Below are positions 281-4,169 of a DNA stretch of 64,000 bases, piece by piece. The notes below the pieces were generated by a model. That model saw nothing but the letters and a program-made list of their open reading frames with translations. It searched no databases and was not told where the DNA came from. The DNA comes from Escherichia virus KFS-EC. How positions within the stretch are numbered: position 1 is the first letter of the stretch; the number at the start of each line of letters is the position of its first letter. The translations under genes and the position numbers were made by a program. Location of the stretch: the sequence record MH560358; one strand, 5' to 3'.

Positions 281-682
281 TTAGTCCTCACTTATAAGGT
301 CAAACCAATTGTTTTTCGCATAATGCTTAATGCGTGCTTGATCTGCTTCCGCTGGTGATAGATTCCATGCAACCACTACAACTTCTGACGCATCGTCATC
401 CGTTTCTGATACCCAATGATTGTGATTCATACAGTTATTTGCTATCGAGTGAGCAAATGATTTCATCACTGGAGACGTATAATCATAGTAACGGATTTTC
501 AGATTTTCATCAACATACAAGTAGATCGTATAAGGTTTATATTCAGTAACCAGTAACAGACAGTTACGCAATTCTGGGAAAATCTTTTTAGTTAATTTCA
601 TTTTATAATCCTCGGTCTCGGCTATAGTACACGGTACGCCATACAATTTCATGTTTCGTGTCGCTCCAGCACACGATCTCAT
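281..682 (-). CDS. hypothetical protein, paralog family A member
   Basis: ORF track; motif NHNHW...EVVVVAW; real start probably an internal ATG at 652 or 601 because the track start overlaps the upstream gene. Confidence 0.45.
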   Translation of the reverse strand: MRSCAGATRNMKLYGVPCTIAETEDYKMKLTKKIFPELRNCLLLVTEYKPYTIYLYVDENLKIRYYDYTSPVMKSFAHSIANNCMNHNHWVSETDDDASEVVVVAWNLSPAEADQARIKHYAKNNWFDLISED

Positions 683-842
683 TTACTCTTAAATCTTTGT
701 TATCAACAAAAGATGAACATTGTGACGCTTCTTTCATCATTTTATCTGCTGTTTTCTCATCAAATACAGCACAGATTTCTTTATACACTCGATAATCTTT
801 GAATTGACTCTGAATACCCATAATTAACACCATTCCAACCAA
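603..842 (-). CDS. hypothetical protein, paralog family B member
   Basis: ORF track; N-terminal FKDYRVYKEI...DKMMKEASQCSSF aligns with the neighbouring ORF 781-1044. Confidence 0.4.
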   Translation of the reverse strand: MVGMVLIMGIQSQFKDYRVYKEICAVFDEKTADKMMKEASQCSSFVDNKDLRVNEIVCWSDTKHEIVWRTVYYSRDRGL

Positions 843-1044
843 TTGTTTTTGAGAAAACGTTTATCCACTGTTGAGTGTAGCATGTTTCTTTCCATGATAC
901 AATACGAGTGGAATAATGGTTTTTGTTTCCAGAAAAGGACGGGCATTTTGATGCATCTTCCATCATCTTTTCGGCGAACTCTGGTGCGTATACTCGCAGG
1001 ATCTGTTGATATGCTTTGTATTCTTTAAATTTGCTCATAATCAT
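781..1044 (-). CDS. hypothetical protein, paralog family B member
   Basis: ORF track; FKEYKAYQQI...EKMMEDASKCPSF aligns with 603-842; 3' end overlaps the paralog. Confidence 0.4.
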   Translation of the reverse strand: MIMSKFKEYKAYQQILRVYAPEFAEKMMEDASKCPSFSGNKNHYSTRIVSWKETCYTQQWINVFSKTIGWNGVNYGYSESIQRLSSV

Positions 1045-1303
1045 TCACTACCTTATCAGCTTCTTTTGTTGTTTTTACATCAACTGCGATAACTCGTAAA
1101 GGTTCGTCATGGTTCCACCAGTGGTCATGAATATCAGCTTGTGATTTATCACCAAAGGAATCACGAATATCATTTTTACATTTATAGCTAATGTGACCTT
1201 CATAGTCAACATAAAGGTAATTATCGAAAATCGGCGTTTTTAAGATCATACCGAAAAATCTTTCTTTGTGTGTCTTATCCAGCGTTACAGTAATTCGCAT
1301 CAT
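1025..1303 (-). CDS. hypothetical protein, paralog family A member
   Basis: ORF track, ATG start; motif YLYVDYEG...HDHWWNHDEPLRVIAVDV. Confidence 0.5.
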   Translation of the reverse strand: MMRITVTLDKTHKERFFGMILKTPIFDNYLYVDYEGHISYKCKNDIRDSFGDKSQADIHDHWWNHDEPLRVIAVDVKTTKEADKVVNDYEQI

Positions 1304-1527: not shown

Positions 1528-1556
1528 ATCTTACTACTCCCTTTAATCATTGTCAA
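1528..1556 (-). promoter_or_regulatory. sigma70-like promoter TTGACA-N17-TAAGAT; hairpin GGGAGTAGTAAGATACTCCC (1522-1541) overlaps the -10
   Basis: Read on minus strand upstream of gene 1316-1495. Confidence 0.5.
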
Positions 1557-3695: not shown

Positions 3696-4169
3696 TTACT
3701 CCTTATTTTCGCGCTCGTACTTTTCGAAATAAAATTCTACTGGCTGGTCATGAATTGACAGCAAGCCAAAGCGTTTAGCCGCTCGCAATCCCATATTGCG
3801 CTGAATGTACTTCTGGAAGTTCTCGCGTATACACTTACGCCAGTATTCTAAGCCCATACAGCTTTTATAAAGATTGCATTGCACACACGCCGGATTCATG
3901 TTATCAAGTATATCATGTTCCGGTTTATGCATTCCTACAACCTTATACTTCCACGATCCATCATCATTACGGGCAATTCGTCCATTTTCATCATAGACTA
4001 CCTTTGAGCGTCGCAATACTGGTTTGATGTGGTCTGCGTGCCAGCGATCCCCTAGTTCCTCGCCACAATAGGCACAGCGTCCACCATATTTCATTTTCAG
4101 GATCTGGCGTTGCTCTTTCTTTGACAATTTTTTAGGTTTAGGGGCTTTCGACCCTTCATTATCACACAT
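3696..4169 (-). CDS. HNH endonuclease (zinc-finger type), putative homing endonuclease
   Basis: CAYCGEEL...HADHIKP...N...CVQCN motif set. Confidence 0.7.
   Translation of the reverse strand: MCDNEGSKAPKPKKLSKKEQRQILKMKYGGRCAYCGEELGDRWHADHIKPVLRRSKVVYDENGRIARNDDGSWKYKVVGMHKPEHDILDNMNPACVQCNLYKSCMGLEYWRKCIRENFQKYIQRNMGLRAAKRFGLLSIHDQPVEFYFEKYERENKE

Follow-up and report, generated by a model that had tools for sequence, protein, structure and literature searches.

The window analysed here is the whole 64,000-nucleotide stretch of Escherichia virus KFS-EC (MH560358). Its first 6 kb are 98% identical to Shigella phage Sf20 and Escherichia phage RB49, and its positions 560-1100 are 100% identical to RB49; judged by this identity, the window is assigned to an RB49-type Krischvirus, a T4-like coliphage (Straboviridae). 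The minus strand carries all of the genes here; downstream of the DNA ligase gene (gene 30) and of an HNH endonuclease gene comes a run of about 15 small hypothetical ORFs, to which the two genes under study belong. They correspond to the deposited genes RB49p202 (copy 1; 781-1044, minus strand) and RB49p201 (copy 2; 603-821, minus strand), whose overlap by 41 nt is already annotated in the RefSeq RB49 record. The surrounding region, comprising RB49 ORFs 197-211, counts among the hyperplastic regions described by Arbiol et al. (2010, PMC2839356); in RB49 and Phi1 such regions are abundant in non-essential ORFs and in PeSL promoter/stem-loop cassettes. The text of that RB49/Phi1 comparison makes no mention of ORFs 201 and 202, and a literature search by locus tags and PHROG number returned no papers. 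The genes and sites at the locus are as follows:

281-601, minus strand: downstream gene RB49p200 (phrog_9345), with its ATG 1 nt after the copy 2 stop
603-821, minus strand: copy 2 (RB49p201), 72 aa from ATG 821, from the RB49 annotation and ortholog starts
781-834, minus strand: new copy 1 tail, codons 69-85 (NGVNYGYSESIQRLSSV, by translation), with the TAA at 783-781
781-1044, minus strand: copy 1 (RB49p202), 87 aa from ATG 1044 or 85 aa from ATG 1038, from the ORF list and RB49 annotation
824-832, minus strand: relic of the ancestral copy 1 end, TGG TGT TAA (W C stop; TGGTGTTAA), intact and now out of frame
828-831, minus strand: SD-like GGTG, 6 nt upstream of the copy 2 ATG and inside copy 1
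about 833-837, minus strand: 5-nt insertion TGGAA, from DNA alignment with G37-3, G5211, 011D4, ECD7, Phi1 and JSE; the exact site is ambiguous (TGG repeat)
1025-1303, minus strand: upstream gene RB49p203 (phrog_15972), whose end, ...DYEQI-TAA, overlaps the copy 1 start by 14-20 nt
1528-1556, minus strand: sigma-70-type early promoter match, TTGACA-17-TAAGAT, the nearest upstream in a consensus scan (stem-loop unchecked)

The HNH endonuclease gene of this region, RB49p212 (3696-4169, minus strand), lies directly downstream of the ligase gene 30 with an 8-nt overlap, a placement typical of homing-endonuclease insertion.

Copies 1 and 2 form a tandem paralog pair: they are adjacent, lie on one strand, resemble each other across a whole domain, and have the same predicted four-helix fold. 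The sequence-only reading had proposed such a pair; both ORFs are present on the minus strand, and the aligned strings that it quoted are correct. On formal pairwise alignment, which it had asked for, the similarity is significant at the protein level (BLASTP: 25/63 identities, or 40%; 63% positives; no gaps; E=9e-17), with nucleotide identity at 52-59%. Both products match phrog_8471, a 71-position profile (copy 1: E=3.3e-36, residues 1-71 only; copy 2: E=2e-33, residues 3-70), and the family HMM yielded exactly two matches, the pair itself, among the 1035 six-frame ORFs of the 64 kb. While the similarity noted earlier in the N-terminal region is real, it is not limited to the N-terminus, as homology covers the full domain of about 65 aa (...IVxWxxT...W...V...). 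Numbered from ATG 1038, copy 1 consists of a four-helix domain (residues 1-68) followed by a 17-aa frameshift tail; in its AlphaFold2 model (mean pLDDT 83) residues 1-65 score above 90 and residues 71-85 below 50. The copy 2 model (mean pLDDT 89.9) has the same helix pattern. In their domain the window's copies are no different from the other phrog_8471 members (RB49p201/p202, Phi1 ORF201/202, JSE EpJSE_00207), all of them hypothetical Krischvirus proteins, whereas the 17-aa tail of copy 1, which only RB49-type genomes have, is not covered by the 71-position profile. A Cys that had been described as conserved between the copies is not so in the wider family: it is Tyr in the other copy 2 allele (AEQYESF) and varies in remote homologs. 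We rejected a metal-binding or disulfide role for this residue, the position being Y, Q, R, I or V in other members.

The assignment of start codons determines how the overlap is read. The conserved M-S-x-F-K-D-Y N-terminus of copy 2 falls at ATG 821, where its orthologs begin, and on the conservation of this N-terminus both TTG 842 and the GTG start annotated in Sf20 were rejected. For copy 1, only the ATG at 1038, and not that at 1044, is kept in Phi1. The consistent reading of the sequences would thus have copy 2 begin at the conserved ATG 821 and copy 1 carry a lineage-specific stop-loss tail. The sequence-only reading had described copy 1 as extending across the copy 2 start in another frame, and this is confirmed; it had, however, placed that start at 842, and the overlap is 41 nt rather than 62. 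Deposited annotations vary at this locus. In Sf20 (MF327006), copy 2 is called from an internal GTG and its conserved N-terminus is cut away; in kvi (MN850615) and MIZ2, it is called from an upstream ATG at 833 that was itself created by the insertion. In GoldenSnicker (OR896832), a 31-aa ORF in another frame replaces copy 1, and in pEJ01 (OP114734) and Brandy (MZ504876) copy 1 is omitted. The insertion and the overlap explain why the deposited Krischvirus annotations disagree here.

We read the junction between the copies directly in 13 non-RB49-type loci, namely G37-3, G5211, 011D4, ECD7 (together with a duplicate contig in IMG/VR), Phi1, JSE, G2248, E26, JK32, Brandy, KMB43, and one IMG/VR metagenome contig. 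In every one of them copy 1 is 69 aa long and ends in ...K-T-L-(D/E)-W-(C/S)-TAA, after which come TT and the next ATG; on four further metagenome contigs the gene coordinates are the same as in this unshifted layout. RB49-type genomes read ...ACA ATT GGT TGG AAT GGT GTT AAT TAT GGG... where the others read ...ACT CTT GAT TGG TGT TAA TT ATG..., a difference of +5 nt plus a few substitutions. Twelve of the 13 relatives have the 9-mer of the relic, unchanged, as the in-frame end of copy 1; the thirteenth, JK32, has TGGTCTTAA (W-S-stop). A 71-nt junction probe aligned without gaps, and with 0-1 mismatch, to 24 phage records from many countries, which excludes sequencing error. The frameshifted junction proposed in the sequence-only reading, which had also called for a comparison of related phages, is therefore borne out: copy 1 lost its stop through a +5-nt insertion close to its 3' end, which is present in the 24 RB49-type records and absent from 13/13 non-RB49-type loci, and so confined to the RB49 sublineage.

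Several features bear on the order of events. G2248 has an RB49-type copy 2, including a 9-nt N-terminal insertion (MGIQSQF...), beside an unshifted copy 1, which indicates that the 5-nt insertion was a separate and later event. Through the 9-nt insertion in copy 2, TTTAAA became TTCAAA and a TAA was lost, so that the shifted frame runs on; otherwise it would stop after 14 nt. Upstream, the gene p203 has the homologous TAA, within copy 1, as its own stop codon. In copy 2, the stretch S-x-F-K-D-Y-R is kept also in the N-terminus of copy 1 and in distant homologs, and so it is older than the tail that it encodes. This greater age of the tail-coding stretch, the short form of copy 1 in every other lineage, and the relic stop that is still visible together argue that the short copy 1 is ancestral. 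The family profile ends at position 71, and the C-termini of homologs are short and variable.

On these alignments, the overlap is a young stop-loss extension that arose by the 5-nt insertion in the RB49 lineage only. In the ancestral layout, the TAA of copy 1 stood two bases before the ATG of copy 2. Insertion of 5 nt after codon 67/68 of copy 1, in the RB49 sublineage, then put the old stop out of frame; copy 1 lost its terminal Cys only and gained 17 aa by reading copy 2 codons 1-13 out of frame, to end at the next TAA (783-781) with the 41-nt overlap as the result. The full account, in which ancient tandem paralogs underwent a 5-nt stop loss and acquired a tail overprinted on copy 2, is in our judgement highly probable as a description of both the evolution and the structure of the locus. 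The observation made in the sequence-only reading is confirmed, and its interpretation partly supported.

The tail overprints copy 2 codons 1-13 from position 821 downwards, one base out of register, so that the overlap covers 781-821 (41 nt). Among the RB49-type genomes read, the sole polymorphism in the overlap is T813C, a silent change in copy 2 (I3I) that gives S76P in the tail. The structure model predicts the tail to be disordered (pLDDT <50 at residues 71-85). Most likely it is a tolerated, unstructured passenger, a suggestion of neutrality that draws on structure prediction and a single variable site. A clade of wide geographic range is fixed for the frameshifted allele, and fixation is an outcome that selection would also give. 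The tryptic peptide that would identify the tail is TIGWNGVNYGYSESIQR.

The duplication itself is old, and both copies are under purifying selection. When codon-aligned, copy 1 and copy 2 have a nucleotide identity of 52% in the window and 59% in Phi1, and an amino-acid identity of 40-45%; between them dN comes to about 0.5, and dS has reached saturation (1.56, or not computable). Among the Krischvirus orthologs of copy 1, dN/dS is 0.02-0.16, the alpha and beta alleles of copy 2 differ with a dN of 0.23 and a dS of 1.7-1.9, and the copy 1 domain of the window compared with that of Makalu_002 gives a dN of 0.023 and a dS of 0.17. Given this saturation of dS, and the conservation of each copy in its own right, both copies are real genes under constraint and their duplication is much older than the Krischvirus radiation. 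Most Krischvirus lineages have both copies with an unshifted junction. In JSE and KMB43, copy 2 is missing, and the same TAATTATG junction leads from copy 1 into a relative of the downstream neighbour; copy 2 is therefore dispensable.

The 3' part of the RB49-type copy 1 domain has diverged more than the rest: codons 44-68 have a dN of 0.09-0.11, compared with 0.01-0.03 in the first 43 codons, and dS is raised there too. This cluster resembles a patch brought in by recombination with a more divergent allele; the changes could reflect such recombination, relaxed constraint, or adaptation. Gene conversion from copy 2 was rejected as their source, since copy 2 has other residues where copy 1 has R45, C53, N60, I66, and G67. 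In the beta-type phages 011D4, ECD7, and Phi1, the first 17-20 nt of both copies are identical (TTATGAGCAAATTTAAAGA), at an overall identity of about 59%, which suggests either homogenisation or a shared constraint at the translation start; identical starts of this kind are also a ready substrate for unequal crossing-over.

The SD-like site before copy 2 is kept in all relatives as TGGTGTTAATTATG (TGGTCTT in JK32), and each copy would be translated from its own SD and ATG, with copy 2 initiating independently. Tightly packed, translationally coupled stop/start gene pairs are common in T4-type operons. The ancestral TAA-TT-ATG, with its SD inside the upstream gene, is of that kind in the 13 relatives, and the translationally coupled overlap put forward in the sequence-only reading fits this ancestral spacing of TAA, 2 nt, and ATG. 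It does not fit the window, where, unlike in coupled pairs, the copy 1 stop (783-781) lies 38 nt 3' of the copy 2 ATG at 821. Ribosomes on copy 1 run through the copy 2 start and stop 38 nt further on, so that copy 2 needs de novo initiation. Coupling by termination and reinitiation is unlikely in the window's layout, and the insertion would have weakened rather than created it. RNA folding of the junction in both layouts gave no consistent hairpin, and the probability that the SD-ATG segment is unpaired was 0.35-0.58 (MFE folds).

For transcription, an early unit p204-p203-copy 1-copy 2-p200 is probably driven from the promoter match at 1528-1556. The promoter scan returned 16 sites, compared with 14.2 ± 4.0 in shuffled controls; because the scan is no richer than the controls, individual promoter matches are leads and not proof. 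Sigma-70-type promoters of this region of RB49 have been described as PeSL cassettes (PMC2839356), and none of these cassettes was found between the two copies or immediately flanking them. Two further sites on the minus strand resemble PeSL cassettes as described by Arbiol et al. 2010 (PMC2839356). At 1762-1790 there is a perfect TTGACA-17-TATAAT (12/12) with a hairpin, GGGGATC...GATCCCC, at 1768-1784 between the hexamers, and at 2347-2375 a second promoter stands beside a GGGAG/CTCCC hairpin (about 2317-2336). The former lies between RB49 ORFs 206 and 205, the interval from which PeSL206/205, tested in that study, takes its name.

The pair shares several features with the ORFans of PeSL hyperplastic regions (PMC2839356; Comeau et al. 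2014, PMC4122927), being likewise small, early-type, and downstream of sigma-70-like promoters. Like PeSL-bounded ORFans, it varies in presence and absence among close relatives, copy 2 being the variable member (missing in JSE and KMB43). It differs from a PeSL-mediated module swap in that the event here is a 5-nt insertion inside a coding sequence, with no PeSL between the copies. Such an event is nothing unusual in variable regions of T4-like phages, and the ORFs are already annotated as hypothetical.

We weighed stop loss in an old tandem pair against four other explanations. The overlap could be adaptive, the tail being a newborn functional peptide or the read-through having been selected to tune the ratio of the paralogs. 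The fixation of the junction in 24 geographically wide records is compatible with this, as are an upstream copy 1 domain that has stayed intact and conserved (the Makalu_002 comparison above) and the fact that other genes of the unit overlap in the same relative frame, p203 lying over copy 1 as shifted copy 1 lies over copy 2. We nonetheless consider it unlikely, given that the tail is modelled with a pLDDT below 50, has a sequence dictated by the older copy 2 coding sequence, and is missing in all other lineages; that its lone polymorphism, silent in copy 2, is a radical S/P change for the tail; and that RNA folding showed no consistent occlusion of the copy 2 start in either layout. Decay of copy 1 in the RB49 lineage, with the frameshift as the first step in pseudogenisation of a redundant paralog, we also think improbable. 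Its supporting evidence includes the raised dN in codons 44-64 of the RB49-type allele, the omission of copy 1 from several deposited annotations (Brandy, GoldenSnicker, and pEJ01), and a second, independent frameshift (+1 A, cutting the domain) found on metagenomic contigs of Krischvirus and in more than one sample (P0005). Against decay, the domain loses no more than its last residue to the insertion, 24/24 records have an ORF open for 85 codons, and most substitutions within the RB49-type clade remain synonymous; dS is also up in the 3' patch, which fits recombination better, and the +1 variant could be a homopolymer assembly error. In this variant, an additional A in the run GGAAACAAAAAATC truncates the copy 1 domain after residue 40 (L022:1501-1701 and L023:520-720; six contigs, more than one sample), and it is either a natural knockout or such an assembly error.

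A recent tandem duplication whose junction was frameshifted at its formation had been one of the two interpretations offered in the sequence-only reading. The tandem arrangement speaks for it, as do the identical first 17-20 nt of the copies in beta-type phages such as 011D4; the explanation is nevertheless very improbable and in effect already refuted, because nucleotide identity between the copies is only 52-59%, dS is saturated, each copy is separately conserved, and most Krischvirus lineages have both copies with an unshifted junction, the 5-nt insertion being later. Least probable of the explanations that we considered is a technical or recoding origin: either an error made in sequencing or assembly, or a programmed ribosomal frameshift by which the short form would be regained. 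Errors often take the form of frame changes at gene ends, and 10 nt upstream of the insertion there is an A-run (CAAAAAC); yet the same junction is present in 24 independently sequenced genomes, copy 1 has no X XXY YYZ heptamer in its frame between 860 and 820, and RNA folding gave no stable, conserved structure downstream.

Homologs of the family were found well beyond Krischvirus. Searches of Pfam and NCBIfam with the family returned no match, a sequence profile search of the PDB returned none (best E=0.08), and a fold search gave no informative match. Word-indexed homolog searches recovered Krischvirus-like proteins only, and IMG/VR yielded two loci. An exhaustive HMM search of 1.8 billion representatives recovered nine proteins in all, five of them remote additions, which marks the family as a small one. 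One remote member lies between ligase and Alt-type ADP-ribosyltransferase genes on another T4-like contig, and other homologs are near SAM lyase genes. By tblastn, Foldseek, and hhalign, we also found homologs in Autographiviridae, where they occupy the first 4 kb of the genome, i.e., the early region (ISAO8 and SDFMU_Pec, for example). Yersinia phage ISAO8 gp03 and Enterobacter phage SDFMU_Pec WNO29623.1 are homologous by profile (hhalign probability 97.6-99.1%), while BFVD models from Aeromonas phiAS7 and Yersinia fHe-Yen3-01 match in fold (Foldseek E 2e-3 to 1e-2, TM about 0.6). These Autographiviridae homologs are single-copy, in contrast to the tandem pair here; they share its early-gene position and are annotated as hypothetical, as is every neighbour of the pair and every homolog.

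ISAO8 gp03 (L025:2489-2776) and the proteins P0014, P0018, and P0019, metagenomic homologs of unassigned phage type, bear at the N-terminus a strongly basic arm (MNKNARRKNK..., MIKRKRKINKQR...), which is absent from the Krischvirus copies; the arm hints that the protein may bind nucleic acid in those phages that bear it. The invariant positions of the family are Ala, Met, Ile, Val, Trp, and Phe, all core residues, and no catalytic-looking residue is conserved. From genomic context, we tentatively suggest, at somewhat less than even odds, that the family is a non-enzymatic early binder of a host or phage macromolecule, with an accessory role in host takeover or counter-defence. A more elaborate version, in which the family is an unrecognised host-takeover or counter-defence factor and the RB49-clade tail is an early case of overprinting, kept because it alters copy 1 binding or the amount of copy 2, appears quite doubtful.

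Beyond annotation housekeeping, the significance of the locus is small. The occurrence of the family among the early genes of both T4-like and T7-like phages, which are very different groups, makes it a reasonable, if unremarkable, candidate for screens of early accessory proteins. The unshifted G2248 and G37-3, on the one hand, and the shifted RB49, on the other, provide a natural contrast with a nearly identical copy 2, with which one could measure the effect on a downstream gene of an upstream frame running through its start site.

A second paralog family is interleaved with the pair, consisting of RB49p200, p203, and probably p206 (281-601, 1025-1303, and 1796-2089, all on the minus strand). 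Its members have the common motif LY(V/I)D...H(D/N)HW, and their profiles (phrog_9345, phrog_15972, and phrog_17255) mutually cross-match. In JSE and KMB43, a member of the p200/p203 family stands directly in the place of copy 2.
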